From: Psammoneis japonica
Taxonomy: Eukaryota
DNA length: 64,000 bases
Direction: 5' to 3'
NCBI GenBank assembly: GCA_008632985.1
Contig: QPGO01000281.1
Location: forward strand, 1-64,000
The position numbers and the translations under genes are program-made. Below, piece after piece: positions 1-26,965 of this stretch (position 1 is the stretch's first letter; each line of letters begins with the position of its first letter). The notes beneath the pieces are model-generated. The model made no database searches. It worked only from the letters and a program-made list of their open reading frames with translations, and was not told where the DNA came from.

Positions 1-82
1 GTGCCGAGCTATGTACTGCGCCGTTGACGAAAATATCCAATGGCTTCGCCAACACTTTGGAGTTTCTTTTTGTTTTTGACAG

Positions 83-862
83 GCATCTATTGATTTTATT
101 TGTTCCTCCATTGACGGCATTTTCGGCATTCCTTGTGACCAACTCGTCATCCCCGATAGCCGAAGCTGTGCTACCGGTGCTTCAAGTAGCAATTGTATTC
201 GTTCGTTGACGTTGTCAGTCCAGGATATTTCTTGCGTTGAAAGCGAAAGCCGAAACAACCAAGTCAACGATACATGCGATGACTTTGCTGATGCGGTACT
301 CGAAGGGGAATTTTTCCTCGTCACGTGTGGTACCTCTCAGGTCGAATTTCTAAGCAGAGACGTCCGTCTTGACGAACCGTTCGAATTGGACATTGGAGCT
401 GACTGTCCAATAGAAAGGATCCAGTGTAAAGTCTACAACCCTAGTGATGAGAGTCAGATAATCCAGATGGTTAGTTTTGATACGTCAGGCGCTGAACCGT
501 TGGATCTCAAGGATGCGTTTGGAAAATTTCAGATTGAAGGTTGCGCTGATCAGATGAACAGCTTTAATCGGCAATGTCTCGCCTCTGTTAATTCCATTTA
601 TTCCCTGTCAAATATTGGTGACGAAAATGTCACATACAATGCTGAAAGTTCTGATTCGTTCGGTAGTGTTAATATTCAAGGTGGGAGTCTTGAACAGGGA
701 GAGACCTTCACTTTCAATGGCATCGGCGGCTTTCTCGATTTCTGTATTGAAGGCACTGCTTGCTATACAAGCAATTTGACTGTCAGGGCTGAATCTGATG
801 AAAATGGAGGCCTGTGTGAAGCTATGGCGATGGATGAGCTTTGTTATGAAGTGAGGATTTGA
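83..862 (+). CDS. Gene A copy 1, last exon: Cys-rich, acidic extracellular-type protein (DUF7467-like by motif resemblance); 5' part lies outside the window
   Basis: Polypyrimidine tract and acceptor ttttgacAG at 81-82. Frame is open from 83 (ASIDF...) and in frame with ORF 206..862. Motifs C..SES.NNQ...C.DF and FDTS.AEPL.LKD.FG are shared with the paralogues at 32250-53459 and 60417-61436. Normal TpA and Tyr content. Confidence 0.8.
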   Translation, partial: ASIDFICSSIDGIFGIPCDQLVIPDSRSCATGASSSNCIRSLTLSVQDISCVESESRNNQVNDTCDDFADAVLEGEFFLVTCGTSQVEFLSRDVRLDEPFELDIGADCPIERIQCKVYNPSDESQIIQMVSFDTSGAEPLDLKDAFGKFQIEGCADQMNSFNRQCLASVNSIYSLSNIGDENVTYNAESSDSFGSVNIQGGSLEQGETFTFNGIGGFLDFCIEGTACYTSNLTVRAESDENGGLCEAMAMDELCYEVRI

Positions 863-1219
863 TTGGAGGCGCCCAAAGAATCTCCCCCGTATGTTGTGTT
901 TCGAGACATACTGTGAATTTGCCGTTTTGTACTTTACTAGCACTTGTTAAAGACATGTCGTTTTGCGTTGAGATAGCTAGATACCTACTCCTACTGTACA
1001 GCGAGTCATAGACTTAGAGAGATGAGTTTGTTACATCCGAGAGGGTCAAGGGATACCGTATTCTTTAGGCTAGGCCTACCGTGCGGAGTGCGGGCATGAC
1101 TTGCCAGAGTGGGTCGGATACGTGGACTATATTCTCTACTAGCGCCGTTTTCATCATGCTTTTGAAGCGAGTCATTTAGAATTCAACCAGCAACAATTCT
1201 GTCATTGTCATGAGAAGGG

Positions 1220-1600
1220 ATCGAGGCCATAGACGGCAAAACATACAACTGGAGCAATCGAGTCTTCAGTCTTCATTATAATTCACTGATTCCGCCATTG
1301 TTCTTCTTGCGCTTCTTCATTTCATGCGCGCTTTCATCGTCATCGACGGGGCTGCCTGTGCAAGGCGATTTGGATTCCCTGCGCTTTTTTTCTTGACGCA
1401 ATTGTTGTTGCTCCCATTTGCTACAGCTGCCTTGAAATCGTTGTAGCTCTCCTGCTTTCCTTTACGTCATTGTGGCTCTGCATGTGTCCTTCATACTCAC
1501 TTTGATGCAATTGAAAAGCATTCGCTGCTTGTAACGCTGTGCTGCTTGATTCGATTCTTCAGCTAGCAATCGCCACATTTCACTGGGTCATGCCATGCGT
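1220..1600 (-). pseudogene. Degenerate Lys/Arg/Glu-rich coding-like fragment; homologue at ~53852-54400
   Basis: Homologous to ORF 53852..54166 (…QESQNDFKAAAANGS…SPCTGSPVDDDESA…), but has an internal deletion and frame breaks relative to it. Confidence 0.35.
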
Positions 1601-2219
1601 ATAGAACTGCATCAAAACAAGAATAAAATATTTGGAATACTCTGAGTCGTCTGCCCGATAAGAGTCGTGAATTTGCCTGAGACGCTTTGTTCGAAAAGAA
1701 GAAACATGATGTGAGATGCGGCCGTGTCATTGACAACAACAGACGGACTGTATCAGGGATACAACAACTGGATCCCACATCCTCTGTCTCTTGCGATTCG
1801 GCTTATCCTGATATTCTGCCGCGGCAACAGATTCAACATCCTCATTGCTACTTCGTTCGTCGGCACTGAGCTGTCAGCTCGAGCCATGACGTCAAAGCTT
1901 TCGACCCTACTTGACATTGTCGTCACGCAGTATTTAATGCTCATATACTTTCGTCGATGTGATTTGGCTCACAACGCTCCCCTACTAAGCCTCATGGTGC
2001 CTTCCTATGGCAGAAAACAAGCCTCACAAATCCAAATAGCAGAAAGCGGGTTCCACTCGAGCACCTATGAAACATTGTAACTTCTGGACCGGATGAATGG
2101 GGGCAGACGATGAAATGAATGTGTACTTGAGAGTGCGATATAAAGCTACAAACTATATGAATCTCGGATGTGCATGTACAATTGTGTCTCCCACCTTTCG
2201 CCTCCGCTATCACGCGAAG

Positions 2220-3392
2220 CTAATGGCATGCAATGAACATGTACCCAATCATAAGGATGTGTACAGCATAAACACCCAAGAAGAGCCCCCCTCGTTCAGG
2301 ATTGCCAAGCGAACTATCTTCCGGACGCAACGGCAAACTGGTAGGAGGTTCTTGTGGAGGCGAGCTTTGTCCTTGTTGGGTGCTTGGACTAACTGTTGCG
2401 GGAGACCCAGTCGTTATTTGCGTTGGGCCTATGGTGGTAGGTGGGACCGTGGATGGGTTTGTCAAAGGTGGGGTTGGAATTGCCGTTTTGGTCGTTGGCA
2501 CAGTGGGTGGGTTTGTCTGCGGTTGGGTAGGGGATGCGGTGGTCGTTGGGACCGTGGTTGGCATGGTCGGCCTTTCCGTGGCAAGAGGGGGATCCGTTGC
2601 GGCGGCACAACCTTCGGAACACCAACGATCTCGTGTGCCCTCCGGGTCTTCATTGAAGAGCCTCTGTAACACGCCCCTTGTACCGCCGTCGCAGTCGATG
2701 GATTTGGGAAAATCACACTCCGACCCCGTGATCAGACAGAAATGCAATTTTTTCCCGTGGATTAAATTCATCATCTCGTAAAAGACAAGGTCGTTACCGG
2801 GTCCACAAAAATCCTCACAGACTGTCCTGCTGCAGTAGCCAGGCTGGTTTGGGCGATTTCCGTCGCACCGGTAACTCTCGCTCTCACAAGACCGCCTAAA
2901 TGGGGTCGTCGTTGTCGGCGGCGAAGTGGGTCGAGGAGTCGATGCAGGCGGCTGTGTCGCAGGTGGCGGGCCGGTATCGGTACCACACGCGGGGCCACAG
3001 ACCGTTGAACGGACTTCTTCTGGGTGATTATTCATAGTTTCTTGGAACTGCGTCATGGTGGGACAATTGACGTCTTCATGCCATCCACAATTGAGGACGG
3101 TACACTTGTATTGGAATCCAAGAGTAATGCCGTAGAACTCTGCATTGTACTCAAGCGTTTTTCCTGGTCCACAGAAATCCGTGCAGATGTAACACTGAGT
3201 AATCCCCCAAGCCGTAGGACAGGTTGGTCCGGAACGGAATTCGCATAAGTCGCTAACCGACAACTTGCGACTCGTTGTGTCGGTGTGATTTCTCGCCCCC
3301 CGTAGCGTTTCTTGGCCGTTACTGTTGGAAGGCCACCCAAACACAACTTGCTTTAGAAAAAAGGGAAGCAGAGTTACCGAAAGTTTGAGCAT
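2220..3392 (-). CDS. Gene B copy 1: secreted/cell-surface protein with two Cys-rich repeats, a Pro/Thr-rich stalk and a hydrophobic C-terminal tail (GPI- or TM-like)
   Basis: 390-aa ORF. Signal-peptide-like N-terminus, two C..C.DFCGPG..L modules, PT-rich region, C-terminal GLFLGVYAVHILMIGYMFIA. Paralogue at 55009-56218. Confidence 0.85.
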   Translation of the reverse strand: MLKLSVTLLPFFLKQVVFGWPSNSNGQETLRGARNHTDTTSRKLSVSDLCEFRSGPTCPTAWGITQCYICTDFCGPGKTLEYNAEFYGITLGFQYKCTVLNCGWHEDVNCPTMTQFQETMNNHPEEVRSTVCGPACGTDTGPPPATQPPASTPRPTSPPTTTTPFRRSCESESYRCDGNRPNQPGYCSRTVCEDFCGPGNDLVFYEMMNLIHGKKLHFCLITGSECDFPKSIDCDGGTRGVLQRLFNEDPEGTRDRWCSEGCAAATDPPLATERPTMPTTVPTTTASPTQPQTNPPTVPTTKTAIPTPPLTNPSTVPPTTIGPTQITTGSPATVSPSTQQGQSSPPQEPPTSLPLRPEDSSLGNPERGGLFLGVYAVHILMIGYMFIACH

Positions 3393-4737
3393 GTCCCGTT
3401 CTATTCTCTTTCAATGGAGATGTAGGATTGCTTTACTACGAGTGAGGGGAAAAGGCAAACAAAAAGCATGTTAAACATGCGAACTCGTGCTACTCAACTA
3501 AACGAGGTGATGATGCGCACCTTATTCTTGCTGTTGTCAAAAGCTGCGAGGTTTAAAACCTGGATTTGGGTTGATTGAGGTTGCAATCGTCGATCGATGC
3601 ATTTTGTGAGTACTTATCAAAAACACCCACAGGAAAAACTCGCGATTTCATTCCCGGATGTGTCACGAATGTTCGGAGCTCGCTTCTCGTTTTTCGTTTT
3701 TGGTCTCGACCATCATTCGCATCATGCGCAACATGGATTCTTCTCGAGTCGTTGACGAGGAACGAAGGACAAGTAAAACGGAGAACGCCATTGTCACTTC
3801 ATGCCGCCGCTGCTTTGTGTTTTTTGTCAAAAAAAAAGCAAAATTGAAGACATAGTGTAGTCACGATTGCGTAACGTGTCTATCATAGTGTTTCTACTTA
3901 CTTTACACTTATACGTAGCAGCCCCTGTACAAAAATTTGTATGCCAAGACTCTTTGTGTTCGGTGGTGGCGGTTTTTGTCTCAATTGCTGCACTTCTGGG
4001 TCGAGACTCAAAAATTAGATGAGAACAAAACTGAGACGAAGAAATGAAGAACACATGGCCAGCACAAACCAATGGCAACCTTGATCCCAGACTCGTGTCT
4101 CTCTCACATTTTCTCACAAGGCCACACCACCAAGAGCTCTCTCTGGAGAGCTGCAGAAAAATCCAAAGCTGTGCAAGAATCATTTCTCTCCTGCCAGACC
4201 ACACGCCATGTCTCACCTGAGCAGCCTCACGCTCAAATGCAGGCGCTGCTTCTGCAAAAGCCAGGCCACAAGATGCAATGCCGGGAACATGCACACAATC
4301 ATCCACCAAAGCACACGAGGAAAAAGTCAAGCCATTTGTCCAGCGATTGCTTGGACGGGCATTTCATGCAATGCAAGCAAGAGCAGCCCGAGCGACGGAA
4401 CCTGCTGCTGAAGATGCGAACAATGTGGTCATTGCCTCAGACAGTTTGGCAGGAACAGGCTCACCTTTTTCAACATGCTGAAGGTGTGTCATTGTCTGAC
4501 TCAGCTGGCAATGCCATGGGCAGCATGTGAGAAGTGATCACATGCTGTGATTCAACAAGTCTTGTTGCTGCTGCATCTCTCCCACAAAGTCAAGGTGACA
4601 ATCTGAGTTGCTGGGCTGTTCTCCCATCAATTAAAAGTTGACAGCAAGCCCCTGGTGTGCTTGAGGAGCAGCCTTGCAAGTGGTGCTGGGCCCAGCAAGC
4701 ATCTTGACTTGCGGGGCATGATGCATGGATGCAAGCA

Positions 4738-4997
4738 GGCCTGCTCCAGTTCCAGGTGATCTGCTTTTCATCACGCGAGAGGCCGATTTTCTGCGCAGTT
4801 TAGCACAATTGACTCCTTCAATTTTGATCATTTTGAAAATCGAAAGGTGAATGTGCACCCAAGAACACATGCAAAGTGCACACTCACCCTTTGATTTGGC
4901 AAAAAACGGATTTGGAAAAAGTCAATTGTGCTGAATGCACAAATTTCCAAATGATGGGAATCGAACCCGCACGGAGCACCTGGAGCTGGAACAGGCC
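4738..4997. mobile_element. 260-bp fold-back MITE-like element
   Basis: Arms ggcctgctccagttccaggtg / cacctggagctggaacaggcc, with inner inverted pairs (agcacaattgact/agtcaattgtgct; ggtgaatgtgcac/gtgcacactcacc). Flanked by AGCA on both sides (4734-4737, 4998-5001). Confidence 0.7.
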
Positions 4998-6340
4998 AGC
5001 AGAGCAAGCAAATGTGTTGAGAGCTTGGCAGAGAACTTCATCAGAGGGTGCAACTTTTGACTCACATTGTCAAAACTGTTGACAACTTGAATTTAAAAAA
5101 TGCTGGCTGCAGCGCTCAACAAAATGCATTTGTTTTGTGCATTTCATCTGATGTCTCATCAGCTCATCTTGTTTTGTCTGTAGCTTGGTTGGGGTTGACA
5201 TCTTTTTTTTGTGATGCATGGTTTGGTTTCCTTTCAATGATCATCAATTTGAACTTGGTTTTAACTTTGTCCCCCCCCCACTCATGTGCATGCATCCCTT
5301 GCACATGTGCAGCTCACTCACCATGCACACACAACCCACCCCCATTTTTCATTTTTTTGTTCATGCTTCCCACACTTGTGCAGCCCATTGGTCTGTGGCA
5401 TTTTCAGCATGTTTTTACAAGCGCAATTTCCTTCACACTCTTCACAACAGCACTCCCTCTCCCCAAACAACAAAAAGTGAGAGTGTGCACTGTTGTGATT
5501 CACATGGATTCTGTGTGTTGTTGCAAATCTGCAAATTGACAACCTGCCATGGTGGTGAAAGACTTTGCCCCATTGGCCAATGACAACAGCTCAATGGTTG
5601 GTGAGACCTGCTGTCCTGCTGGTTGGTCAAGATGAACTTTGACAGGGGATTCTCTTGAGTTTGGTGGTTGCAAGTGTGCTCTCACAAATCTGTCAAAAAG
5701 AATCATGCCAAGCTGGGGTGCTGTGATTCTGTGTGTGTGCACATCGCAAGCTTTTCTGCAGCATTGATGCAATTGTGCTCGTCAGAGGTTTGACATCCAG
5801 AACAATCACAAGTCACCACAAGCGACACTCTTTAAACAAGGAATGTGCAAAAAGGTGACAATGCAACCATCTTCTCCCAATTTTTTGCCCAGGTCCAGCC
5901 AAAAGGACAGCAGAGGTGAAGAGTGGGGAGGCAGCCCATTGGAGGATGCCTGAGTTTCTCTTGGCTGTTTGCAGTCCATGCTTTGAGCACATCATTGATG
6001 AGCCATTCACAGCATGGGAGGTGTGAGACAAACTCAGTCATTGTGGCTTGTCATTCATGCAGCACCTTGCGCTGTGCGGCACACATGCAGTCAGGCAGTG
6101 CTTGTTCCCACAGCCACTCCGGTGAGTGCATTCTGTGGCACTTGGGATGTTTTTTTGGTTTCTCACATGCTTTTTCAATTGTGTCCATGTGTTCTTTGAG
6201 TTGCAGGGGTGGAGCTGCTGGGCACTCAATGTCATGCACTCACAACAATGTCACCAGCTCTGGAGTCAGCGGCGCTGGGTGCACCGGCAAGTCTGTCTTG
6301 CAGCTCCTGTTGGTCATGTTGCTTCATCTGTGTCATGCTC

Positions 6341-6631
6341 TCACAATGTGTTCTCTCCACCTTGTTTCCTGAATGGCTCTTGCAGGCCAGGGTTCTGTGG
6401 TGCAGCTGCAACCATGATGTTGATTGGTGCTTGGCACGTTGTGCACCCCAATGTCCATTCCCTCACATTTGCAGCCATTGCTGGCCACCAGAGCCTTGTG
6501 GCAATCTTCCAGCAGGTCTTTTCACAGCTTGAATGTCCTGCACAAGGTGAGATGTGAAGGGCAGAGAAGATGGCTTGTTTGCATCTTTTTGGCACTTCTC
6601 TTGCATGGGCAAAAAAGTGTGCATCAGTCAC
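6341..6631 (-). pseudogene. Retroelement (Ty3/Gypsy-type) integrase zinc-binding domain remnant
   Basis: LHISPCAGHSSCEKTCWKIATRLWWPAMAANVREWTLGCTTCQ matches the H-x-GH…KT…WWP.M…C..CQ (HHCC) pattern. Confidence 0.7.
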
Positions 6632-7739
6632 AGGGCATGGTTTGATGCTTCAACCTGGTGAGTGCACTCTTTCATCAGAGGCCCATGGAAAAGGCCTTCA
6701 GTCACAAGTCATTGAACCCCACCATCTCATGGCATGCACGTGCGCTCCTAGATTGGTGGATCCCACTCCAGATTGAAATTGACGTTTGCTTGTTGGAAAG
6801 ACAACATTTTTGTTCATTTTCAATTTGTGGATTAGAAAATCAGGCATTTGTTGTTCCACGACACATTTTATTTAATTTAAATTCATTGACTTGCACGCCA
6901 AAATGCCAAGTCACACGGCACTGTCATTCCCTCAACCAAGGACAATTGCATTTCGTTCCAGCTGAAAAATGTTCATTTTCATGTTGTGCAAGGCATTTTT
7001 GCCAAAATTTCTGCATTTCCGTCCTCATGATGGATGTCGATAATTCCGCAAAATTTTCCACCCTTTTCTGCTCCCCCCAAAACCCCCTCTCCTCTCCACC
7101 AAATCACAATCTTTCATTTGCACCATTCCCCCGAGCGATCCTGTTTGTGGCATTTGTCCCTTCTGCTTGTGATCTGCGGGTCCAGTCCCCTGTGGTTTTG
7201 GTGAATCAGTGCAGAACCGTGAAAGCAGCATGACAAGAAGTCCGCGGGTTTCTGCGTCCTCTGTTCATGCCGTGATCGCCCATGGCGGTTTGCCTCACCT
7301 GCCGTTGCGACCACGCCCTGTCTCAAAGTCACGCCCAAGCAAAAGCAACATCTCTCTCCCAGCTCTGAATCATTCAGGGATGCCACCGAATGTGAAACTC
7401 GCCCATCGCACCGCTTTGTCACGTCTCCAGACCACGACGGCTTGCTCAATGACATTTTTTTGACATCCAACGTGGTGGCAAACCTCTCTGATGACACCAA
7501 TCTTGGCTCTGACAACCACTCCGGTGGCAACGACTCGTCTGCTCAAGGCAATGATCACGCCAGCACACTGTCTGCATCCGGAGACCTTGACGGTCATGCC
7601 AGCGATCTTTCTTTTCCCAACGAAGACAATGTGGGCGCTGATTCTTTAGATGGAAGCAATGTTTCTGTTCTTGACGACCACGCCAAAGCATGCTCAAATG
7701 GTGTTGACGGCACCCACATGACAAAGTCCCAATTTTAAA

Positions 7740-8680
7740 AAAAACATTGAGACGCAGCACCACCGTCAGAAGTTCATCGAGACTCACAAATGGACCCCCT
7801 CCGCTGATCTCATTGCCCTGCCCTTCGTTTGTTGTAACCACCAGAATCAAGCCTCCCATTTCTTCATGGAAGTGTTGATGGTCAACGACACAGTTGCCCA
7901 TTCTCTTGGCTGTAAAGATGGCTTTCATCATGTAAAAAGTCGTGGCTGGATGTGTTTTCGTCGTAAAGATGGGAGGGATGTTCTGGCATGCCACAAGCTG
8001 GCCAAAACCTTTTCCAATCTTTCTCGATTCGGCAAACATCTCCATGCAATCATTGATGATTTATGCAAGATGACAGTGAGCGAACGAATTGGCAACGACC
8101 CTTGCTTCCTTTGCTCAACAGCTTCAAGTCCAAATTGGATTTTTTTGCACAATGCCTGGGCATTGCTGCCACCACAATGGACTGTTGCTTTCTCCCTCAC
8201 GTTGACAAAGAGTTCGGCAATTTTCGACGCTGGTTGACCATTGTTTTTTCCGGCTGCGAAAAGAGGAAACAGTTCATTCTGTTTTGCAACAATGTTTTGA
8301 CCCTGATGAACACGGAACAGAAGTTGAAGGATGGGAAGGTCACCAAGAAGATCCTCACCAATCATCTGGAATGTGTCAAGGCTTGCGTTGACACTCATGC
8401 CATGGCAAAAGGTGTGGCACAAAAATGCCAAGAGTTGGTTGAGCGTGAGCTCCATTCCACCTTCAAGTGTTCCTGCAAGGACACGAGTCATCTCAAGTTC
8501 TGCAACCCAGCAATTGTGCGATCATGTGACCACAATCTCACGCATCCACACCTTTCCTGTGAGGCCAAGGCAAAGTTTGTTTCTTCCACCAAGAGGAGGA
8601 AGAAGAGCAAGGAGTCCTCCAGTGTGTCTGCTGGTTCTCTGGCACCTCCGCCCACTTCATCCAAGAAAGACACCAACTAG
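7740..8680 (+). pseudogene. Accessory ORF a of element 1, function unknown
   Basis: HFFMEVLMVNDTVAHSLGCK is homologous to HFFVEPMAVNRIVAKELGCK at ~30785-30845 (-). Confidence 0.5.
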
Positions 8681-9602
8681 AATCCTGTTGCTCATCCAAC
8701 CGGCACCACGGCCGACACCCCACCGTCTGCCAATCGCTCCACAAGCACACTCGCCTCCCAGTTGCAACCTTTTGCTGACGACAAAGTCGAGGTGTTGTTG
8801 GATGGAGAGTCATCATCGTCGGGTGAATCATTGACTGAAGACCACCCCATCCAGAATGTCCCCAATGCCGGTGCTGTGGGTCCATCCCTGGGAGGAGTTG
8901 CTTCTTCAGCATCTCCATCAAAGCCAAGCACACAGGCCAGCACCACAACTTCCTCGTCAATCAACAATCGGTTCCCCCATGGTCATTGTTGCTGCTTTGC
9001 ATCCCTTTCTGAGGTCTCGAGGTGCACTCCTCGCATTTGTGTTTTTTATGATCTGGACGACGATGACGATGACAATGAGCAATCTGCCAATCGTGAGTTA
9101 AACCTGCATCATTCTCCAGCAGACTGTTGCTCACATGATGATCTACGACATCATCTCCACTCATTTGTGATGACGCAACCACTTCCTTCTGCTGCAAATC
9201 ATGACCAGGAGCTGGTGGTTGTCCCACCCAGAGCTCAACGCATTCAGGATGATGCTGCCATTTTGCGCTCATCCTCCCATCTTTGGCAGAAACACTTTGG
9301 ATCTCTCCAAGTTTGCGCTGCAAAAAAAACAATGATGATTGGTCCAAGCAGCCAGAGAAACAAGACTGGATCGATTTTGGCTGCTGTGGTCAGTCGCACG
9401 ATGTGCTCGAGAATGGCAAGAAAGTCCCACAACACTGCAAGTCGGTTTTGGAATTTTCGAGAAAGAAAAAAACGTCGTCATCCGCAATCAGATCAAGTCA
9501 ATGCTTGCAAATGCATGCGATTCCATGCAGAGGTGCCATGATGAGCTAGAGACAGAGCACTTTGGCAATCCTTGACCCTGCAACAACACCGCACGAACTG
9601 CA

Positions 9603-12213
9603 ATGCATGGGGCCGCGCTTTGCACTGGGCTGGGTTGCAAAGCAGCAAGGAATGAGCTTGGCACTGTCCAAGCTAAGATCATGCCTGATGGTGTGCAGAT
9701 TCATCCAGATGATCGAAATTGTGTTTTTTGTGGATGCACCAAGACTGGAGCCCTGTGTTTTTTCATCCAGGACAAGTTGGGGAATGTCGTTTCTGTCAAG
9801 TTCCTTGCCAACAGCCGGAAATGCACGGGTGAATGTTTTGACAAGCATTTGACATTGCTGCCATTGAAGACAATGATGCTGAAGCATGTCACAGCCATGA
9901 ATCACGCAGGCAAGGAGTTCTCTTTATCGTGCAAGGGCCCTCATGGTCCACCAAAAGATTTGAACCACCACCATCCCAAGAACATGATTCTCGATGATCA
10001 TTGCCCGTGCAAGGAAAAGGCACTCGACAAGGCTGGTTTGATTGTCATGGACAGGTTGGAGTTTCCCACCTTCTGCATTTGGGATTTGTGGTTGTCAATG
10101 GGGATCACCATCCTGTTCCAACTCCGAGATGTGCTTGGAATGCACAAGGTTGTCAAGATGGCAATCATGGCTTCTCATCAGACTGGATTCCACTGGTTCT
10201 TCCACGTTGGCATGGAGCACGGGGACGAGTTGACTGAACCCAGCTCTGATCCTGCACTTGTCTGCTGTCAACTGGCCATGAAGCTGTTTGGCACTGCCGC
10301 CGGAGATGCAGGAGTCACTCCACACCGTCTGAACCCCAGCGGCTGCAATTTTGTTGAGACCTGCTGCAAAGATTCCTCTGCCACTGGCCGCAAGAGGAAA
10401 TCCAATGAATCCACCTGTGCAAGAAGCAACCGGAAGCATGCCTGCAGAGTTTCTTTGTCCAACTTGGAGAAAGAAGTTCTCCCCAATGATGCTGACATTG
10501 AAGACATTCTCGGTGCTGGAGAATCCGCTGACAACAATGCTGAAACAGACATTGAGGGAGAGGGCAATCTCCGGCTCAATGGCCTTGAGATGTCGTGTGC
10601 CATGGATGAAATGGTGGTTGGTGTGATTCTTGATTTGTTGAAATGGATTGACAACCACACCGGATCTCCAGATTTCCACCATGCCATGCCATGCTGGAGA
10701 TGCATTTCCGGCTGGCAATCAAGAAATTCCCAAGAGGAACCAACATCAATGAGTTTTGTTTGATGTTGGTCATCCAAATGCCAGTCGGTGCAGGAATCAT
10801 TGTTCATCTCCACCCTCATTTGAGAAATCTTGTTTGTCCTGTGTCCAAACTCGGTGCCGCAAAGCAGCCAGAGCACTTGGACCCCAACGATTGTGTGGCG
10901 TGTGCTGACTCGCCAATGGTCAAACATGGAATGGAGCATCACGGTGGCTCGGGCAGGGATTGTGTCCTCTGTGATTGGTGTGCTCCAAATCGTGTTGAAG
11001 GCATCATTAAAGAGCATTGCTCTCGTGGTCAGCATGTTTTCATGCTCATTGGAGATGACGCTGCCCCCAGCGTGAAGCGACATGGCACTGGACATTGGGA
11101 CGCTGTTCCCATCACAATGGAGGGGCAAGTTTCAACACCGAACTGTGCTTTGCTTTGGATGTTTTCCAACTGCCATTTTTGTTCTCCTGCTTTGAAAGAA
11201 CTGGAGTGCCCGGGGAAGACCTGGGTGATTTGGAAAATCAAGACACAGCAGCAGAGGAAGAAGAATTTTCTCAACCCCCAAATGATTTTGGCTCAGATGT
11301 CAATGAGTCGGCGGCACAACAAGAATTGAGTCATCCCAAGGACAAGAGAGGCATCCCTCCCAATGGTGCCAACAAACACTGTGACTCTGTGTCACCGGAC
11401 TTTGACGACATGAGGGAATCACCTCAAGAGAGCCCGGATCTCTCAGTGCAACCGAAGAACACAAAGGTGTTGTTTTTGTGCATGACACAGACAAACGACA
11501 TTGATTCTCTGTCGTTCACAAATGTGCTTGATGACATCAATGACAACTTGTTCAGTGGAAATTCCAAACTGAGATCCAATGCGACAAGGACACTTGCCTG
11601 TCGTGATTTGGTGCTTGGTGCAACCAACTGCACCACTGATTGCGAATTTTACGCAGCTTCTCTGAGCGACGGTCACAACGCCCATCACCTCAACTGCAAT
11701 GCATGCAGTCCTGCATTTTGCAATGAGGTCATCACAAAGTTTGGAAGGGACTTTGAGGAAATCAACTTGGATTGCTTTTGGTTGCAAGAGGGTTGGTTGA
11801 GTGACAGATTCAACCCATGCTTCTTCTTTGGCTGGACATTGCCTGAACTGTCAAATGCGATGAAAGTTGGTGGTGCCATCAGTGTCCCTTTTAACATCAA
11901 GACATTTGTTGCCTGTGTCTTGCATGGGGAGTCCATTGTCAAAATGTGCCATGCCCTTTTTCTGGTGGATGTGCGCATCCCATTGCACAAACCGCACCGC
12001 TGCAGTCATTTCGATGATGAACAGTGCAAACAAAAGCTGAGTCTAGATCATGCATGTCAGGTGAACAAATGCCTGACCAGTGTTGCAAGCAGCGAAGTTA
12101 GCCAGTCAGCTCCAGAACCTTTTTGCCTTCAATCTGAAGAGGTTTGGAAGCAGTTGAGTGACAAAAATCACCACATCGATCTTTGCAAATGGACCCACCT
12201 GGTAAAAAAGTAA
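9603..12213 (+). pseudogene. Accessory ORF b of element 1 (frameshifted); C-terminal part possibly Rossmann/methyltransferase-like
   Basis: Blocks GCTKTGALC, GPH.PP, QTGF..F.H, WI....G.P.F.H, LRNLV.P..KLGAAKQ and F..I.LD..W are all shared, in order, with 26966-30476 (-). Confidence 0.6.
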
Positions 12214-12517
12214 GAAGATGTGATGATTTGGTGTCCAGCTCATCCAGGAACATTCGCGCCAATGGCGCCACTTCACCTGGCATTCGTTGGACATGGAAAT
12301 GGCAAAACACATTGAGGTGGTGATCACAGTGACAACCAATGAAGTCGGGAAGATGGTCGGACATAAAAACACGCAAGGCGACAAGCCGGTTCCTCACAAA
12401 GAGCAGCTCCCCGCCAATGATTGAGCCACATTGATGCATGTCAAGTCGAGCGATTGTCCCATTGGCATGCCTCATCAAGTTGCGGTTGCAGCTTTTTGCA
12501 GGTGGAGAACAGACATG

Positions 12518-13165
12518 TCACGGGGCATGCAAGTGCACATCTGTGTTGTCAAAGGCTGCCAATGAGACAGATGGAAGGCGAGATGGGAGATCATGCCTTT
12601 GTCCATCCAGAGTCAAATCCAATTTTGTGTTGAAGTTGTGCAACCAAAATTCCATTGCGCAATGATCATTTCGATGCTCCTCATCACAGAAGATGCAAGT
12701 GTTGGGAACCCAATCTTGAAAATGTGTTTCTCTGATGCATCTCTGAGCAGGGGCAATGTCATCGCCGCCCCGTCTCTTTGCAGGCACGAGATGATGACTG
12801 TGCATGGACAGGAAGCATTGGAGCCTTGTGTGTTCATGAAAATGTCTCCTGTTTGTGTCGATGCTCTCGCAGAACTCCTCCTCCGAGTCAGAAAAGTTTT
12901 CTTCATGATGGAAATGTTCGTCCATTGTTTCCCCAGCTTCTGTCATCTGGCGAACATTTCTTTTTGGGTTGCCATCCCAGAATCGATTGCGTCGGTGACG
13001 GGGACCATCCGCGATTCTCTGCCACCCAATGGCGGCCATGTGACAAAGCAATTGGTTGGAAATTTGTAAAGTGGCAAGAGTTTGGACATCTGTTGTTTCC
13101 AAGAAGGAGAAAATGTGTTGCCACACAGTGGCATGCCGACATCCAAGCATGCAATTGTTGTCCAT
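12518..13165 (-). pseudogene. Cargo ORF with possible N-terminal F-box-like motif
   Basis: VWQHIFSFLETTDVQTL resembles the F-box consensus. Remainder unassigned. Confidence 0.3.
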
Positions 13166-15637
13166 GCTGGCAAAAGGTTGTGGTCCTTTTGTTCATGGTG
13201 AGGATCACATCCATTGTTTGCATTTTTGTGTGCACGGTCCGTTGAGTCATCCGTTGGGTTTTGTCAAGTGTCAGTCCAATCATCGTCAGTCGGCAAAAAT
13301 GAAAAGAACACTGACACACAACCAACCCGGCAAGACAACTGACACACAAACCATCATGTGTGTGGTCAACAGACACCACCACTTCATCATGATCATTGAA
13401 GAAATTGCCGCAACCCAAATTTGAGAAGAAGACCATGTCAGAGGCACTCAACAGTCACCTTGCGCAGATGAAGGAGAAAGCAATGGTTTGCGATCACGCT
13501 GACATTCCTCACAATTCAGAGGAACAGAGAGCAAAGGATGCAAAGGCTGCAGTTGCTAGATCTGCATCAGTGATGGCAGAAAAATGTTTTCATTTGGTGC
13601 ATGCAATGGATCAAATCAAAAGAGCTGTCCCAAATCCAGACACCACGGTTCACGAAATAAAGCTGCACTGCATTCAGTCCAAGTTTTTGATCAAAGCACA
13701 TTGTTCAGAAAACAAGCACACCACTGCAGTTGAAGATTTCAGCGATGCGGAAATGTGTTTCCAACAAGCTCTTCATGGCAACGACTTTGATGCAAGAGGG
13801 GCAGGGACTCCCAATCTCCATGGAGGAATTTCGATGACCCAAGCATTTTCAGTGCATGCCATGTGGCTGTGATTCACCATTGCTTCTTAAACACATGCGA
13901 GGCACTCTCTGAAAGAGAAGAGTTGGAAACAGATGAGGGAACAGTGACTGGGGATGATCCCAACAATGCAATCGACAGGGAGCTTCCTGCCATTGATTGC
14001 TTTGTCAGGTCCATCCACACCCATGCCATGCATCAAACCATGCCAAGCAATGTCATTCGGTCCTCCCTGTCACAACCACAGCGGGACCTGAAGGAGGTGT
14101 TTTCCACTTTTTGCAAAGCCTGCATGGAATTGCAAAGGAAAAATGAAGCCTTGAAACAATGTTGGGATTCTTTGTTTGATGAGAGGCTGGGTGCGGATCA
14201 ATTTAGGAGAGGGATCTGGTCTGCGATCCATGCCATGAACGAAGAAGCAGTCACAAGAGAAACATTCCTGTGTTTGGCAATCTGAACGGAGGAATGATTG
14301 TTGCATTTCAACCAGACAGATGGCAGCCCTGAGTTTCAGCATGCGACGATGGTTGCCAGGGAACATTTCATGGAACAGGATGACTGGATGGAATGCAAAG
14401 ACAACTGCAGTCGAGGCCAGAGCATGGCATCTCAAAACCAGGACCACTCGGATGCTCTCGTGTCAGATGTTTGTTGATGGATGCATTTTAGGAATGGGCG
14501 AGACTTTTGTGTGTAACAGACTGTTTGTTTTGCAATCTGGTTTAAATCAACAGGTGAGCTGTCTAACATGTTCTTTTTTTCTGTTCCCACTGTGCCTGAC
14601 AGGACCACAAATTAGTTGTGACAGCTCGGTGGTGGCTTCATCTGGCATGTTTTGGGTGTGTCAGTCTGGCATTGAGTTGTGTCGACACATGCCTTGGTGG
14701 ATCCGACTCGTGCGTGCCTTGTCCATTGAGAACGGTGACGCATGTGAGATTGACATCAACATCAGTTCTCTCTCTAGCAGCACCCAACAGCAACCAATGT
14801 GCATCACTGGTTTTCCGTTTTTGCTTTTTCAAAATTCTGTTCTCAGCCACAGACACGTGATCACCATGTCGGACGGCGTCAATTTCCCACTGCAGTTTCC
14901 TGATCCGGTTGAGGATTGCACCCGGGAACAGCTCTTGGAGGTCAGGCATGTGTTGCATGATGATGATTGCTGCACACGTCTCATGCAGAAAAGTGCAATT
15001 TGCCATTTGAGCAACCTTGCAACAACACAAGATGAAATTGACAACATCGCACCAACCAAGGGGAACTGCATCAATTGTCATCTCGTCGGTCCAAACCAAC
15101 AAATGTGCCGGCACTGTGTCAGCCTTGCCAACCAGCTGGGGCAAAACATTTTGGGGAAAATTCCCAACATGCAAGCGGCGCCACTGATGCTTCATCAATG
15201 CCCACCTCTTTGAGAAAGCAGAAGGCTGGTGCATGGAGCTGGACATCACAGACTTGTCTTTTGGTGGAGAGGATGGACACCAGTGCCATCAAATGCATGG
15301 GCCGTTCAACATCATTGATGTAAAATCATCAGATAGAAAGCTGCAATTGTGCTCCAGATTGATGCACCAGAGAAGTGATGCTCACCCAATTTGCAAGCAC
15401 ACCCACTTCATTGTGCGCCAGTTGATGTGTGGGAACTTTAGAATGGTGTGGCAGCATCTTGAGTTGTGCAACGCACTTGATGTTGTCGATGACTTGCTGC
15501 CAATCATCCCCAAGGAATCCATGATTGCACTGCCAAGAGGTGATGTGGTTGTTGTCCCGAGGCCAACTCACACTGGCTGAACAAAACCAATGTTGGCACA
15601 CCATCTTCTGCGTTCATCCCAGTCTCCTCTCGTTGAA

Positions 15638-18600
15638 TCAAATCATTGGGTGGCAAGCCCACTGCCAATGCAAGCCCACATTGTCTGCCTGGGAATGGCG
15701 CCAAAAGCTGCATTTGTCAGCACCCTCAGAACTTTCCTCTCTCATCATCATTTCCCGCATCCATTCACAAAACATCTTGGCCCAGTCCAGGTGGGGTTTA
15801 ACCACCATCACTCTGTGCTCCCTTCTCTGGTTGCAATTGCGCACTTGGGGTGGGACCGGGCTGTTGCATTGTTTGGACATGAAACACAGGATGCCATGAC
15901 AAATTGATTGAATGCAAATGTTGCACATGGACGGATGTCTGGATGATTGGAGTTCTTGCGCGCAATGAGCAAACAATCGGGTGTCCCCAAAATCAGACTC
16001 GGTCACCCGGGCAGATGTGGACTTGCAGTCAACCAAGTGAATGATGGCCTTGGCAACCCCGTTGGAATCCTTGCAGAACCCAACAATGCGGGCGGGATGC
16101 AGCTCACTGGATGCATTGTCCATGTTGAAATGGACTTCCGCCCAGTTGAACCAGGGTCCCTCTTTGGAACAATGCTGTGGGCATGCTCTGAGGTGGTCGC
16201 CATTTGCGAGTTTTGCTTCAATCCAAATGTCAAACTCAGGTTGGTCCAGTTCAAGTTCTTGGATGGCTTTGAGGAAGGCGTGGCAAGGTGCACCAGTTTC
16301 CCGGTTGGCGGGGCTTTTGGCACCATGTCGGTCGAGTGCATGCACGTCATTGAAAGAATCACGCCAGAAGACAAAGTGTGGCATTCGTCGGGCAACCTTT
16401 GATTCCCGGTCACCATTGGCAACAGAGGATGCATCCTCTTCAGGAGCACCTGATGCAAGGTTTGCTTCCAAATTCCAGAGGACGATCTCATCCACACACC
16501 TGCCACAAAGAAGAGCTTTGCAAATTTGTTGGCAGGTCTGTTTGAGGAAAGTGGCCATGCCTCTCTTCTGTGCCGTCTTGGATGTCTTTTTTGCCTTTGT
16601 TTTCAACAATCTTTCACCGGTCGATGCGTGCAATTGCATGTCGTCACCTGGCCACAAATGATGAAAGTTCTTGTGGTTCTGGGCTTCAACCTTTTCCAAG
16701 TCGAAGTTGGCGGAGTTGTTGCACGGTGCAGGATGGTGTCCATGCACCCAACCACTCGCTTTGTCCCAAAGCAAATCATGGCATGATCCTTCTGCACAAC
16801 TGCCGGGAGTTGGTGTGAACAATGACAAAAAGCATGGTGGCAGAGAATGTGCTCCAAGAAAGAAGAGCATGTCTTCATGTTGGATGATGTTGCGCCGGTG
16901 AATCCATTTCCCTTGATTGTTGGTTTCTTCCGACAGTGCTTCATGACACAATTCTGCACAGGGTGAGAGAGCTGGCATGGATTTTGAACTGCCACGTCCT
17001 CCCCGTCACATGATTCCTCTGAGGCCAACAGATCCACCATTTTCTTTGAGACAGTTTTGCACAACCCCCATTGACAATGTGTCCCCTGACCTTGGAACGT
17101 TTTCCATCATTTCCTTGTAAAAGACCATCAATGCATTCCAGGACGATGGGACATGCAATGGAGTCCAGCACATCACGTGGAGGGCAAGAATTTTCCTCCT
17201 TGCTTTTGATGGTTTTCATAATCTTCCAAGACTCAACTTCAAAAAAGAAAATCTGTGCAGCTTCAGGTGCTTGATGACATGCTGAATCGTTTCTGGCTGG
17301 CAATCAAAAGCATCGTTTTTGCCATGGTCCCTTGATTGTTGGTTTCTTCTGACGGTGCTTCATGACACAATTCTGCACAGGGTGAGAGAGCTGGCATGGA
17401 TTTTGAACTGCCACGTCCTCCCCGTCACATGGTTCCTCTGAGGCCAACAGATCCACCGTTTTCTTTGGGACAGTTTTGCTCAACCCATTGACAATGTGTC
17501 CCCTGACCTTGGAACATTTTCCATCATTTCCTCGCAAAAGACCATCAATGCATTCCAGGTTGATGGGACATGCAATGGAGTCCAGCACATCACAAGGAGG
17601 GTGAGAATTTTCCTCCTTGCTTTTGATGGTTTTCAAAATCTTCCAAGACTCGACTTCAAAAAAGAAAATCTGTGCAGCTTCAGGTGCTTGATGACATGCT
17701 GAATCGTTTCTGGTTGGCGATCAAAAGCCTCATTTGGCCATGGTCCATGGCAAAAAACATGTCCTTCCTGCAAGGAAAAATGGTGGGTGGAAGCGGTTTC
17801 TTTTCCTTTTCTTCCTTGGTGGCGGCTTGTTGTTGAGCCGCCTCCTCAGCGGCCTTTCTTGCCTTTTCCCTTTCGCGGGTGGTGTCACAAGTTGCTCTTT
17901 GTCACTTGTTGTCATGTCCATGGGAAGTCGCAGAAGATCGGGATCTTTTGCCAACACTGGACCTGTCATTGTTGGAAGGCAGGGCATCGTCTGGCCCCTG
18001 CGGGAACATCAGAGGAGGAGGGATCGTTGCTGCCAGACTCATTGGCATTTTCGTTCACGCTGTCATTTGGTTTTTTGTGCAGAGAGGCAAGTTTTGAGGC
18101 GGAAGGAAACATTTTGCACTTCTTCTTTTGGCGTTCATGCACCGTTTCCATTGTCTCACGAGGCTTCAGGCATTGCATCACCACACACAGGTAGAACAGA
18201 GAACCCATTTTTTGGGGGTGGGTCTGGAGAGTCATTCTGCTAAAGCCAGAACTTGAGCAACCTTCAGGGTGTTGTGCCAAGGCTGTGGACCTGCAGCATC
18301 CAACGACAGCTTTGAGTTCTGTCTCAAAGTTTTCCTTCTCTTTCTTGGCAAATCCAAAGCACAAGACTTGTGCCACGTTCTCCACACCACCTGCTTCCCA
18401 GGAATGAAGGTGATTGTCAGCCGTCGCTGCAAACACACCCCATGGATTGCCTCCGAAATTGACACCGTCGAAGGTGTTTTGCAGAGGGTGCATCATGTGC
18501 GGATGCAAAAGCAGAGCCTCTGCGAGCTTCTGTTGCTGCTTGACCAATGGACTGCACTTGCCAAATGCTGCTGCAGTGGAGCCGGTCCATCCAACTGCCA

Positions 18601-19723
18601 GCTTGTCAAGACAGGAAACAATCTCCACATTGATCGGAGAACAAGGAAGACCAAGCTGGTTGGTTTGGCGGGATGTGTTTGTAACATCGTTGGTGGAACA
18701 CATGCAGAAGAAGCAATGCACTCAAACCAGCACCACCACCATTGGATGATTTCTGTCCACAGATGAAGTCTTGTGACTTCTGGTCACCAAATGTTGGCCC
18801 TTTCACAAGTCGGGTGCGCATGCGCCGGCAACACCACCCAAGTTTACCATCATGAGGGGAGGCTCCGCCTGCAATGCCCTCAAATCTTCCAAGAGAAAAG
18901 ACAACATGTCGTGGCAAGCCTGCATGTTTGATGAACTTGGGGGCTCACCTGATTGTGTGTCTTTGTTCACATTCCCGTTCTCATTGAGTGTGCCACCTGC
19001 ACCATCCTTGTCTGTGCTCGGCATGAACCCCAGGTGACGCCAGGAGCAATCACGCTCACACACATGCCTCTTGGCAAGAAGAATGCAGAACAACCAGGGT
19101 TCGAGGGGATGCCTTTGACAGGCATCAGTCCCTGTCTGATCAGCGCACAAAGCAATTGGCAATGGCAAGTCCTTCTTGCAGTCAAAGTCATTGGGGAGGG
19201 CATCGCATGTGTCGGAGCACCACTTGTTGGACATGATCTTGCCAAGATCACAAACATCAACAGGAGCACACTTGTGGAAACGTTCCTGCAGGGACTTGCT
19301 CACGTTGAGATTGTGCTCATTGTCAAACATCGAGTGGGTGAGCAAATCTCTCAACATGTCCAGCATGCAGAAGCGAGTGACTTCCCATCCACCAATGAGG
19401 CGAGTGTTGGGCTGGGGCAGGAAAACCTTCTTGCGGAGTTTCTTCACTGACAAGTCCCGCCCAAGACACTGGGAACAATCAAATTTCTGCTTCTTGCTAA
19501 ATCGGCGCAACAGGGTGAGCAACTGCCCGCAGAATTCACGAGTGGTGCCGGAATTGTCACACAGTGTAATCAGCTCCAACGAGGCTTCCTCCAAGGCATC
19601 GGAGTCAGCATTGCTGGTGGTGGGGAGGACGCTGGGGGGTGGATCCTGGGGCAAGGTGGATTCTTCACATGCATCCACCGGGGAAGAATGCAAAGAAGCA
19701 GCAGGAGAAGTGCCAGGGAACAT
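15638..19723 (-). pseudogene. Plavaka-type transposase, frameshifted and mutated
   Basis: Ordered motifs LPIALCADQTGTD..QRHPLEPW, WRHLGFMP, CHDML..LL..L...Q, GDQKSQDFICG, NTFDGVNFGGNPWGVFAAT.D..LHSWEAG, LRACPQH…GPWFNW, across ORFs 18803..19723, 17966..18721 and 15638..16978. Confidence 0.8.
16910..17728. repeat. ~420-bp tandem duplication inside the transposase
   Basis: 16910-17311 and 17329-17728 both run from cccttgattgttggtttctt to atcaaaagc. Confidence 0.9.
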
Positions 19724-21217
19724 TTTGTAAAGAGAGGAATCGTCGTCGTCACGCTCATCGTCGTCGCAATCCTCTTCCTCCTCCTCCTCCTCCTCCTCCT
19801 CCTTGGATTCTTCATCGGGGGGCTGCAGATTGTCTGCGGGTGGGAAACTGGGTGAGTCATCATCTCTCCATTGAGGTCCGTGCTGCGATTTAGTGCTTCG
19901 TCATTCTCAGATGCGGAAACGGATGACTGACGAGAAATTTGCCACTCTTGGAACACAAGAATGGCGGCTTGTGACAACTGGCACAATTGAGTTGTGGCAG
20001 ATGCACGGGGATGGGCTGCATTTTGCGAGTGGTGGCAGTGATGGTGGCAAACAGGCATGCCAAGCTAAGAGTGCGATTGGAGATGAGGAAGGCAAAGACA
20101 CAGGATGAAACAATTGGGTGCTTGTTCACAACCATTTGTTGGCATGCAGGTGTTGGATTGATTTTTGAATCAAATCACTTTGTGTGCACCCAGTTGATTT
20201 TTTTGAATGGGAGACCACTTGGCATGGTGGCAACAGCCGTTGGAGAGTTGGCCACAGGGAGGCAATTGGACATGAGGCGTGCACATGTTCGGAAATTAAA
20301 GATGACATTTTTTGAATTGGAGAGAGAGGATCCATTTAAATTTCAGTGCAAATGTCCAGCCAAATGAAGAAACATTGGCAAAAGACACTGTTCAGGGGGA
20401 AATGGAGAAGGACAACCATCACCCACATGTTGTCCGCAAGACTCAAACACATCCATCAACGTGCTTGCATGTGCATGAGCACACACCAGAAATGAACACA
20501 GCGGCAGCAGCAGAGGACAATGGTGCATGTGGAGTGGGAGTTGAGCTCAGCCGAGTGGATGGCGGACCAGGCCAAGGTGATGGAAGACATGGCAAAGGTG
20601 AGAGATCATGCAAAGAGGAAACATTGTTCCTCAGTGCAATGTTCGCATTCAACAAAAAAGGGAATGGAGGAAACGGGCATGCTCTGCTGAGATCATGAAC
20701 AGAATTGAGGCCCCAAGATGATGCATGGCCTGCTGAACAAATTGCCCGAGGCAGAGCAAAAAACACACCTGCACTGCCTGTGGCTTGTGATGAAACAAAA
20801 AAGATGTGTCAGGAGTGGCTGGCAATGGAGAGATCAAATGCATGCCAGGCGCAGCAGGGCAAGTTCCACGGTGAGTGATGATGGAGGGTGAAATGAGGAC
20901 AGCCAATGCGATTGCTGACAGTGTCGTCACTTGCTTTTCTTGCCGCAAACAAAGCTCTTTGTGCATGCTGTGAAGCAAAGAATTGCATCTTGCCATTGCT
21001 GGAAAGATTCCAAGATCACTTGGGAAACCCGACTTTGCAAATGGTGTTCCATGACTGCATGCTGCGTCCGATTGTTGGAGACACATGCTGGAAAGAGTGC
21101 ATTTCCAGGAACAAGAGGATGGGCACAGCATGTGCCAAGGTGTTTGCCCACATGCTCCTCAAGAACAACGGTGATGCGTGGCATGCCGAGCACAAGAGCT
21201 GAAACAAGGAAGGGACT

Positions 21218-21895
21218 TTGATGACAGATTGCAGCGTGCAGTTGGTTGATGATGGAGGAGGAAAGGACTTGTGTGAGACGATCATGCCAGACATTGCGAC
21301 AGCCAAAGAGAAGGACAGCCAGGGCAAGAGCAAGTTTGTGCTGCTCCAGAAAGATCCACAAGAAGAAGAGACATCAGAGGAGGAAGGTCCGCCAGTGCAA
21401 GAACTGAAGCAGAAGTTCAAGAACACAAGAGAAGAGTCCGTCATAAAACGTGATGCCATGGTCAAGAAGATCAGAGAAGAGCCAAATGCTGCACTGCAAG
21501 CAACGGCTCTGAACAAGGCTGCAGAAGTGCCAGTTGACATCCAAAACAATGCAGATGCATCCAGCAAAAAGAGAAAGGTTGTCAGGAACCTCAAGCATTT
21601 CACGGCAGCAAAGCCAAAAAACTCGGACAGAAATGCAGGACCACGGAAGCGCAAAAAACCGAGGAAGAGCAAAGGGTGGTCGCCAAAGGCCAACAAGTTC
21701 TTTGTTAACATGGTCAAGGAGATCAAGCAAGATGTTGCAAGCGGATGCCTGGGCCAGTGGGAAGAGCTCCACAGAGCTGTTGTGACTGAGCAAGATCAAT
21801 GGGCATCTGAAGAAGCACAGGATGGCTTGGATGATGAAGACGACCAACAGGTCAACTGCGCCAAAGCATGCAAACTGGAGTTGGCGGCAGTTTAG
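21218..21895 (+). pseudogene. Divergently oriented second ORF of Plavaka-like element 1 (3' part)
   Basis: KSKGWSPKANKFFVNMVKEIKQD plus an acidic tail resembles VSWGDDGITRFNDLCKEVMKDRD in 25020..25547 (-). Confidence 0.5.
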
Positions 21896-22377
21896 TCGAG
21901 AGTGACTTGGCAGCCATGGATTGCAATCGCACTTGTTTGGGGTCAATTGCAGCAGAGACATGCAACAAACAGATGGGGCCATCGAAAACACTGTGTTTTG
22001 AACACACCAGCAAACCCATTGACTTCAACCGTAAAAATTGAAAACAAATCAAAACACGGCACTCAATTGTCACCCAGTTGGCGCCAATGAGAAAAGTCAA
22101 ATCCAACAAAGCAACCAGTTCAGCATCATCAACTGATTGGGCGGCACTCCACTTGTTGGGATTGAAAACTGTTTTGGAAAGTCCGCGGACATTCATTGGT
22201 TGGTGTGGACATTTGTTCACCTTCAATCATGACTGTTTGTGGCAAACAGTCATGATTCACGTTGAATCACCTTGATTCATTGTAAATGAACACATGTGCA
22301 GGCTCTCACAAACACTGTCACACACAATGTCCATTGGTGTGACCACAAGACAATTCATGGAAACGGGCCTCTGATGC

Positions 22378-26950: not shown

Positions 26951-26965
26951 GCGTGCATCAATCTG

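Follow-up and report, generated by a model that had tools for sequence, protein, structure and literature searches.

Sequence context of TpA loss in transposon-rich domains of a Psammoneis japonica contig

A 64,000-nucleotide stretch of the Psammoneis japonica genome (assembly GCA_008632985.1, contig QPGO01000281.1, positions 1 to 64,000 of the forward strand; hereafter the window) contains long domains from which the dinucleotide TpA is almost absent. Which TpA sites have survived in these domains, and what does their context say about the process that removed the others? An earlier note on 4600..10000, an interval within the larger domain, had claimed that the residual TAs were mostly TTA, TAA, CTA or TAG and that RTAY (R, purine; Y, pyrimidine) was the preferred target. 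We analyzed the whole window and found that the context bias of TpA is real and far beyond chance.

Context of the surviving TpA sites

Two domains are deeply depleted of TpA and CpG, domain 1 at 4003..43500 (TA observed/expected ratio, O/E, about 0.07) and domain 2 at 56751..60300 (7 TAs in 3.5 kb; CpG O/E 0.08-0.2), and a partly depleted segment lies at 43501..52000 (TA O/E 0.16, CpG O/E 0.85). The inside set was composed of 4003-43500 and 56751-60300 (43,050 bp), and the outside or flank set of 1-4000, 52001-56750 and 60301-64000 (12,450 bp); all inside-versus-outside counts were confined to the 64-kb window. The results showed that the O/E of TpA was 0.07 inside (188 sites, 0.44% of dinucleotides) and 0.58 outside, that of CpG 0.49 and 1.04, that of TpG 1.65 and 1.17, and that of CpA 1.69 and 1.14, respectively, and that the remaining 12 dinucleotides differed by at most 0.13 O/E units. 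Among the NA and TN steps TA alone was down, AA, CA and GA being undepleted. The products TG (4348) and CA (4627) had gained equally on both strands inside, and the GC content was alike in the two states (48.6% vs 48.9%; about 48% for the window overall). Depletion extended over about 39 consecutive 1-kb bins (4001-43000) with a TA O/E of 0.00-0.20, and the left borders were abrupt, falling from 14 TAs in 3751-4000 to 1 in 4001-4250 at domain 1 and from 7 in 56501-56750 to 1 in 56751-57000 at domain 2.

The TAs inside comprised 100 YTAR, 45 YTAY, 42 RTAR and 1 RTAY, against 80, 135, 113 and 143 of the 471 outside. Over the 10 strand-symmetric NTAN classes, the two sets differed strongly (chi-square 162.6, p = 2e-30). 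From the base composition of the inside set itself 47 RTAY sites were expected, and from a first-order Markov model 39 (binomial P(<=1) = 5e-18); because this expectation is also taken from the domain's own composition, the RTAY deficit is independent of the outside reference. The only inside RTAY stands at 38973; when the inside set was divided into nine blocks, domain 2 and eight of 4.5-5 kb, none had more than one. Survival relative to outside was 0.67 for TTAA, 0.27 for CTAA/TTAG, 0.25 for GTAA/TTAC and 0.24 for CTAG; it was 0.07 for both ATAA/TTAT and CTAC/GTAG, 0.03 for ATAG/CTAT, 0.007 for GTAC, and 0 for ATAT and for ATAC/GTAT. The partly depleted segment gave the same ranking of the 10 classes (Spearman 0.94, p = 5e-5).

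The bias reached beyond the adjacent bases. Counting from the A of TA (its T is -1), survivors were enriched for T at -2, -3 and -4 and for A at +1, +2 and +3. T at -3, which is equal to A at +2 on the other strand, was found at about 60% of survivors whatever the base at -2, compared with only 24-33% outside and at the TTG, CTG and GTG sites that served as controls, and 57% of survivors touched a run of at least three T or A, vs 13% outside.

In 4600..10000, the eleven sites listed by the earlier note are all present (TA at 4632, 5094, 5262, 5833, 6749, 6873, 6878, 7913, 7933, 8678 and 9547), and its description of the residual TAs holds: among 27 TAs, 15 were YTAR (TTAA 8, TTAG 3, CTAG 3, CTAA 1), 12 were mixed (TTAT 4, GTAA 4, and GTAG, TTAC, ATAA and CTAC once each) and none was RTAY, GTAC, ATAT, GTAT and ATAC each being absent as it had stated. 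Uniform loss of all NTAN classes after correction for base composition is contradicted by the window-wide counts above.

Loss of TpA by mutation and its strand-specific target

Repeat unit A, which is low-copy, offers copies in both states. Copy 1 (1..4002; TA O/E 0.55-0.64), which serves as outside reference, copy 2 (52600..56739), recognized by sequence comparison, and the partial copy 3 (60416..61557), which adjoins domain 2, are non-depleted, and a hypermutated copy of the unit's start (33147..33510, plus strand) is embedded in domain 1. The unit A copies are 73-89% identical overall (copy 1 vs 53020-56220, 87-89% by blastn), with transversions at least as frequent as other transitions, and their mutual homology stops at about 4003-4010. 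When 33147-33510 was aligned with 103-345 and 60416-60907, the TA was always in the flank copy wherever TA stood against TG or CA. Over four alignments, TA in the outside copy against TG/CA in the inside copy was counted 17:0, a tally in which some events are shared because the same inside copy was set against two outside ones. Segment 59665-60415 of domain 2 is 95% identical to 22377-23129 of domain 1. These copies show that the depletion of TpA, as read from paralogous sequence, is mutational and directional. Since one copy of unit A is depleted within domain 1 and the outside copies are intact, despite directly adjoining depleted domains, the comparison argues that targeting is by region instead of by sequence.

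Paralogous contigs from a sequencing run (X1), aligned at 80% likeness over 40001-60000, gave 1554 differing places: A>G 255, T>C 271, C>T 324 and G>A 317, with 31-50 for each transversion. Among the 40 best-supported of the 1554, the window had TG/CA where the paralogue had TA in 9 cases (reverse, 1) and TG/CA where the paralogue had CG in 17 (reverse, 3). The region 40001-52000 is multi-copy, with a summed contig depth of 540 to 89,000 vs about 70 for single-copy sequence; within it, 40001-41334 is a very high-copy repeat (55,000-89,000), a depth suggestive of a genomic copy number of the order of 1,000.

The partly depleted segment carries a Ty3/gypsy long terminal repeat (LTR) retrotransposon on the minus strand (44572..51798), with LTRs at 44572-45157 and 51209-51798; its ends are TG..CA, and its 4-bp target site, TGTC, is duplicated. 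An X1 contig joins 44567 to 51799 and represents the empty site, so paralogous copies of the surrounding repeat exist without this insertion. The LTR pair was 94.6% identical in nucleotides and 99.3% in purine/pyrimidine coding, and the copies of a 279-bp tandem array in domain 1 (35423..37054, about 6 copies) were about 85-89% (blastn) and 97-99% identical, respectively; this high coded identity means that the divergence of both is nearly all transitions. At several dinucleotides of the array, some copies have TG and others CA, which indicates that each copy mutated independently after the array had formed, though as a source of independent events the array has 5 informative copies only. The LTR pair also has 10 transitions outside TA and CG in 590 bp, about 0.85% per lineage. 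With 2207 RTGY and RCAY sites inside, about 19 RTAY would be expected to have been regenerated since the insertion, and 1 exists. From this small sample we infer that hypermutation stayed active, which fits the heavy mutation of the young element. The element also has a 10-bp microsatellite of about 13 units (46155-46284), bordered by the two 64-nt arms of an inverted repeat (46095-46158 and 46727-46790), and the CpG O/E in 46001-47000 is 1.48.

The encoded proteins record the same loss. The polyprotein of the Ty3/gypsy element (46928-49549, minus strand, 873 aa; Pfam RVT_1, RT_RNaseH and Integrase_H2C2), whose closest relative is 39% identical, kept tyrosine in 2 of 21 columns at least 70% conserved, compared with 29-100% for other residue types; at the 23 columns with at least 60% tyrosine in 45 relatives it has Cys 7, Phe 6, His 4, Tyr 2, Ile 2, Ser 1 and Glu 1. 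On the minus strand of domain 1, we found a hypermutated Plavaka-like DNA transposase gene (15641..19900), of about 1,100-1,370 aa, that persists as three long tyrosine-free frames (15641-17005, 17969-18721 and 18806-19900), all collinear with one relative (P0134). An exhaustive HMMER search with the C-terminal frame, 15641-17005, gave 122 relatives; Pfam Plavaka (PF18759), presumably a branch of the CACTA superfamily, was matched by 3 of the 8 relatives scanned, one of them above the curated cut-off. Pfam does not recognize the window's own transposase frames, only the unmutated relatives matching. None of 17 conserved tyrosines is kept in the transposase (Cys 7, His 4, Phe 3, other 3). Domain 1 has eight frames of at least 350 aa vs 0.06 expected by chance, with 0-0.3% tyrosine, and the long open frames have 0-0.8% tyrosine, 1.6-6.6% cysteine and 0.9-7.0% histidine. 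A Pfam scan of 132 frames of at least 120 aa in 3800-52300 found no viral hallmark and, apart from the polyprotein, gave sub-threshold or repeat-driven matches only (DUF7467, E = 6e-5; EF-hand_15, DUF4512 and HGAL in the tandem array). The domains are mutated transposons and repeats.

Survivor counts leave a purine at -2 and a pyrimidine at +1 indistinguishable, each being the other read on the opposite strand, and events were accordingly assigned to the strand that carried the A-to-G change. Twelve paralogue pairs involving a depleted or partly depleted copy gave 53 unique events. The mutated A lay in YTAY in 22 and in RTAR in 6 (binomial p = 0.004), whereas five outside-versus-outside control pairs gave 8 and 13 (Fisher p = 0.007 vs 22:6). 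Tyrosine codons were oriented as TAY -> TGY (Cys) or TAY -> CAY (His), and reading of the codons gave 4:2 for the polyprotein; the transposase gave 4:0. His followed a purine in 4 of 4 cases in the transposase, as is expected under a 3'-pyrimidine rule, and in 2 of 4 in the polyprotein. Pooled with the 3:3 read from the contexts of the 40 best-supported paralogous-contig differences, the orientation was 33:11 (p = 0.001). The +1 base of the 53 events was C in 22, G in 12, T in 11 and A in 8, and mutated against spared TAs, compared through window paralogues in place of transposon consensus alignments, numbered 11:0 for RTAY, 14:8 for YTAR and 28:6 for the mixed classes.

We then described TA decay as the sum of two strand-specific rates set by the base 3' of A. 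This +1-only model was strongly favored over uniform decay (likelihood-ratio chi-square 228, 3 df), with fitted cumulative hazards of 0.20 for A, 0.98 for G, 1.59 for C and 2.6 for T. The fit became better still once the +2 base was included (chi-square 51, 3 df); an A there cuts the hazard by a factor of about 2.5, and the other three bases are alike. The -2 base or recognition of the whole palindrome may also matter. The evidence, drawn from survivors and paralogues, favors a rule of 5'-T-A-Y on each strand with A at +1 and +2 protective. Under such a rule RTAY vanishes because it has two good targets, YTAY and RTAR have one, and YTAR has none, so that junctions of T-runs and A-runs such as TTTAAA persist. 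RTAY is thus the class most completely removed, as the earlier note had proposed, and the target itself is better described per strand.

The products of this process were symmetric over the domains as a whole. Locally, the TG:CA ratio was 153:234 in 28001-30000 (z -4.1), 219:151 in 44001-46000 (z +3.5) and 227:130 in 50001-52000 (z +5.1), an asymmetry that might reflect the direction of transcription or replication.

Proposed mechanism and alternatives

We hold with moderate confidence that these domains, nests of transposable elements, were brought close to saturation by a region-directed DNA hypermutation of TpA to TpG/CpA, with an adenine deaminase as the putative agent. The nests consist of the Plavaka-like DNA transposon, the Ty3/gypsy retrotransposon, and tandem and high-copy repeats, in which A is changed to G on either strand; a T appears to be needed 5' of the A, with a pyrimidine favored at +1, G intermediate and A strongly disfavored. 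The agent would be a DNA-acting adenine deaminase of the TadA/ADAT2 kind, its product inosine being read as G. In line with the proposal made for Bigelowiella natans (B. natans) in a 2026 preprint (Mettrop et al., 10.64898/2026.01.13.699255), it would act after recruitment to repeat chromatin that is silenced and probably methylated at CpG. The elements would be disabled by missense changes with their frames left open, TAA/TAG and tyrosine codons being erased; no new stop codons are made, since under the genetic code the sole in-frame source of a TGA is TAA.

CpG, too, has decayed in these domains. The polarity of its loss between outside and inside copies (23:6) has the same direction as that of TA, and the loss depends little on context, except that GCGC escapes (100 inside sites, survival 0.96 vs 0.34-0.52 for the other nine classes). 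TA and CpG loss are decoupled in rate, as seen from their O/E in the segment of the young LTR element. We read the loss of CpG as ordinary methylation-linked decay that would mark the same silenced chromatin. A single enzyme behind both losses is unlikely in view of this decoupling and of the B. natans hypermutations, 230 of 231 of which were AT>GC in the main text of the preprint (10.64898/2026.01.13.699255).

Several points weigh against the deaminase reading or the rule attached to it. Deamination of A at T-A-Y and a change of thymine at R-T-A are formally equivalent, being identical in sequence, and the Pfam scans found no deaminase domain among the window frames. The ancestral NTAN spectrum behind the survival values was derived from the 12.45 kb of flank, itself partly repeated. 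The contexts of the best 40 of the paralogous-contig differences, by reading, gave an orientation of 3:3. The +1-only model underpredicts GTAA/TTAC (47 observed vs 35 predicted) and overpredicts GTAC (1 vs 6.0) and ATAC/GTAT (0 vs 3.9). A comparison of product tetramers (NTGN vs NCAN) gave an excess of 915 for the products of the +1 rule vs 488, in the same direction, and was not counted, as it is confounded by CpG decay and a small reference. The strict UACG of bacterial TadA appears not to be reproduced, since at +1 T serves at least as well as C, and at +2 G has no advantage over C or T. CpG decay is present here and not reported for B. natans in the main text of the preprint.

The best-placed alternative, which we nevertheless consider unlikely, is centered on thymine: an oxidase of the TET/JBP type would modify T in 5'-R-T-A-3' to 5-hydroxymethyl- or 5-formyl-uracil, and mispairing with G would turn T to C. 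All our sequence results are strand-symmetric and suit it equally, the 3' pyrimidine of a mutated A being the 5' purine of a mutated T. In some protists hydroxymethyluracil takes the place of thymine, with a reported enrichment at TpA; a literature search on this base at TpA in dinoflagellates found no source for the statement. Hydroxymethyluracil paired with A is only weakly mutagenic, and we saw no thymine-oxidizing enzyme or modified base. The B. natans study proposes adenine deamination and names an ADAT2-like candidate (10.64898/2026.01.13.699255), and the 5' T requirement agrees with the UA preference of TadA enzymes described in the text of PMC12296453.

Considerably less probable is that the bias reflects regeneration or retention of TA, with new TAs arising at junctions of T-runs and A-runs or with selection for stop codons or AT-rich signals. 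The concentration of survivors at such junctions (57% vs 13% in the flanks) would fit, and 6 of 36 open frames of at least 200 aa end in TAG or TAA. Yet the 2207 RTGY/RCAY sites are each one transition from RTAY and only one RTAY is found inside, so regenerated RTAY must have been removed again, which is in itself a context-dependent hazard; and the paralogues show directly that every RTAY compared was mutated, whereas 8 YTAR were spared. Stop-codon retention as the cause of the surviving TAA/TAG was rejected, with 142 TAR survivors vs 6 long frames so ended.

An artefact, in which a long-read basecaller would have miscalled modified bases (A as G, C as T), is very improbable. The window spans high-copy repeats and hence is probably a long-read assembly, and TA and CG are both classic sites of base modification. 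Against this, X1 contains 70% of the sampled 31-letter words of 4001-14000, its 2155-bp contig over 55880-58034 has 3 differences and the aligned part (58865-60000) of its 1188-letter contig has 1, although X1, whose library type is unrecorded, may be the window's own assembly sample and gives no independent proof; copies at different stages of mutation also coexist. Scarcely credible is that the domains are foreign, for example viral, DNA that was TA-poor from the start through donor codon usage or restriction avoidance, for although their compositional borders are sharp and the hypermutated B. natans regions are viral insertions in the preprint's account (10.64898/2026.01.13.699255), the identifiable genes derive from a Ty3/gypsy element and a Plavaka-like DNA transposon and not from a virus, a copy of the host-side unit A that lies inside domain 1 is itself depleted, the post-insertion LTR divergence is almost only transitions, conserved tyrosines are lost, and paralogous contigs retain TA or CG where the window has TG/CA, a polarity by which such an origin is already contradicted.

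Other features of the window touch these questions less closely. A 402-aa frame at 37691-38896 (minus strand) has a sub-threshold match to class-III aminotransferases (Aminotran_3, E = 4e-6, 26.3 bits vs a cut-off of 30.5) and is possibly a fragment of a captured host gene. The DUF7467 open frame in copy 1 of unit A had no relatives in a word-index search of proteins of 138-440 residues and only sub-threshold bacterial Ig-like clusters in the protein atlas, and a literature search on DUF7467 found nothing. At 62001-64000, G+C rises to 59%, the CpG O/E is 1.0-1.3 and there is a 532-aa frame of no recognized family; 61958-63553 gave no usable protein-atlas match, and 62001-64000 is probably ordinary host sequence beyond the repeat cluster. 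Rfam had no match in the window.

Relation to known systems and significance

The closest parallel is B. natans. In the main text of the preprint (10.64898/2026.01.13.699255), 230 of the 231 de novo mutations seen in a pair of viral insertions changed A to G or T to C at TpA, with some lines mutating at about 1e-7 to 1e-6 per site per generation, and 124 clusters depleted of TpA and enriched for CpA/TpG were reported together with the ADAT2-like candidate. As described there for B. natans, both strands of the window show TpA -> TpG/CpA changes that keep to blocks of non-host DNA, and the TpA-depleted genes of B. natans are enriched for reverse-transcriptase and DDE-transposase domains. Unlike that account, the targets here are transposons and repeats, not recognizable viral genes, the loss is near saturation (TA is 3.3% of dinucleotides in the B. 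natans giant-virus region), and CpG is also halved. The main text of the preprint makes no mention of wider sequence context or of CpG, and our literature search found no description of this mutation type beyond the preprint.

Compared with TadA and ADAT2-ADAT3, the likeness is partial. Wild-type TadA depends on UACG and TadA-8e favors UA, according to the text of PMC12296453. The T apparently needed at -1 agrees with the resemblance to TadA that the earlier note had suggested, and the C favored at +1 also fits; T at +1 and G at +2, as noted above, fit the full UACG motif less well. Unlike TadA, the substrate here is chromosomal DNA over tens of kilobases.

The window shares with repeat-induced point mutation (RIP) a region-wide transition hypermutation of repeats and mobile DNA, a dinucleotide preference and sharp borders. 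RIP of ascomycetes changes C to T mainly as CpA -> TpA, and it raises TpA and AT and creates stop codons, whereas here TpA is destroyed, CpA stands at 1.69, GC is unchanged and no stops are made.

ADAR acts on RNA and prefers G on the 3' side, whereas here a pyrimidine is best and G intermediate at +1 and both strands are changed. As in ADAR editing of double-stranded RNA derived from repeats, the A-to-G changes are clustered in repeats, and U is favored 5' of the edited A according to the Discussion of the preprint (10.64898/2026.01.13.699255). ADAR-type editing fixed through retrotransposition was rejected, since TG and CA gained equally and the DNA transposase and tandem repeats were hit; post-insertion LTR divergence is affected as well.

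The kind of process is thus already known from the B. natans preprint, and what the window adds is the TAY rule, together with protection by A-tracts and a saturated end state. So far, the description of TpA-directed hypermutation of invading DNA comes from a single preprint on a single species, and the window shows its end state in transposon-rich DNA. In such genomes, long frames without tyrosine and rich in cysteine and histidine are a warning of mutated transposon genes, for which ordinary homology searches largely fail. The quantitative rule, with T required at -1, a pyrimidine favored at +1 and A at +1/+2 protective, is directly testable on the existing mutation-accumulation data of B. 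natans, and rules of this sort were the fingerprints from which the enzymes of the APOBEC and RIP signatures were traced. We tentatively propose that a dedicated DNA adenine deaminase acting at T-A-pyrimidine may form a RIP-like defense at silenced, CpG-methylated repeats, possibly in a second lineage beside B. natans. It would proceed to saturation and would inactivate transposons through the loss of tyrosine codons and others that contain TA, their frames staying open. If this is true, the hierarchy TAT, TAC > TAG >> TAA and the protective A at +2 would be the enzyme's fingerprint among candidate deaminases.

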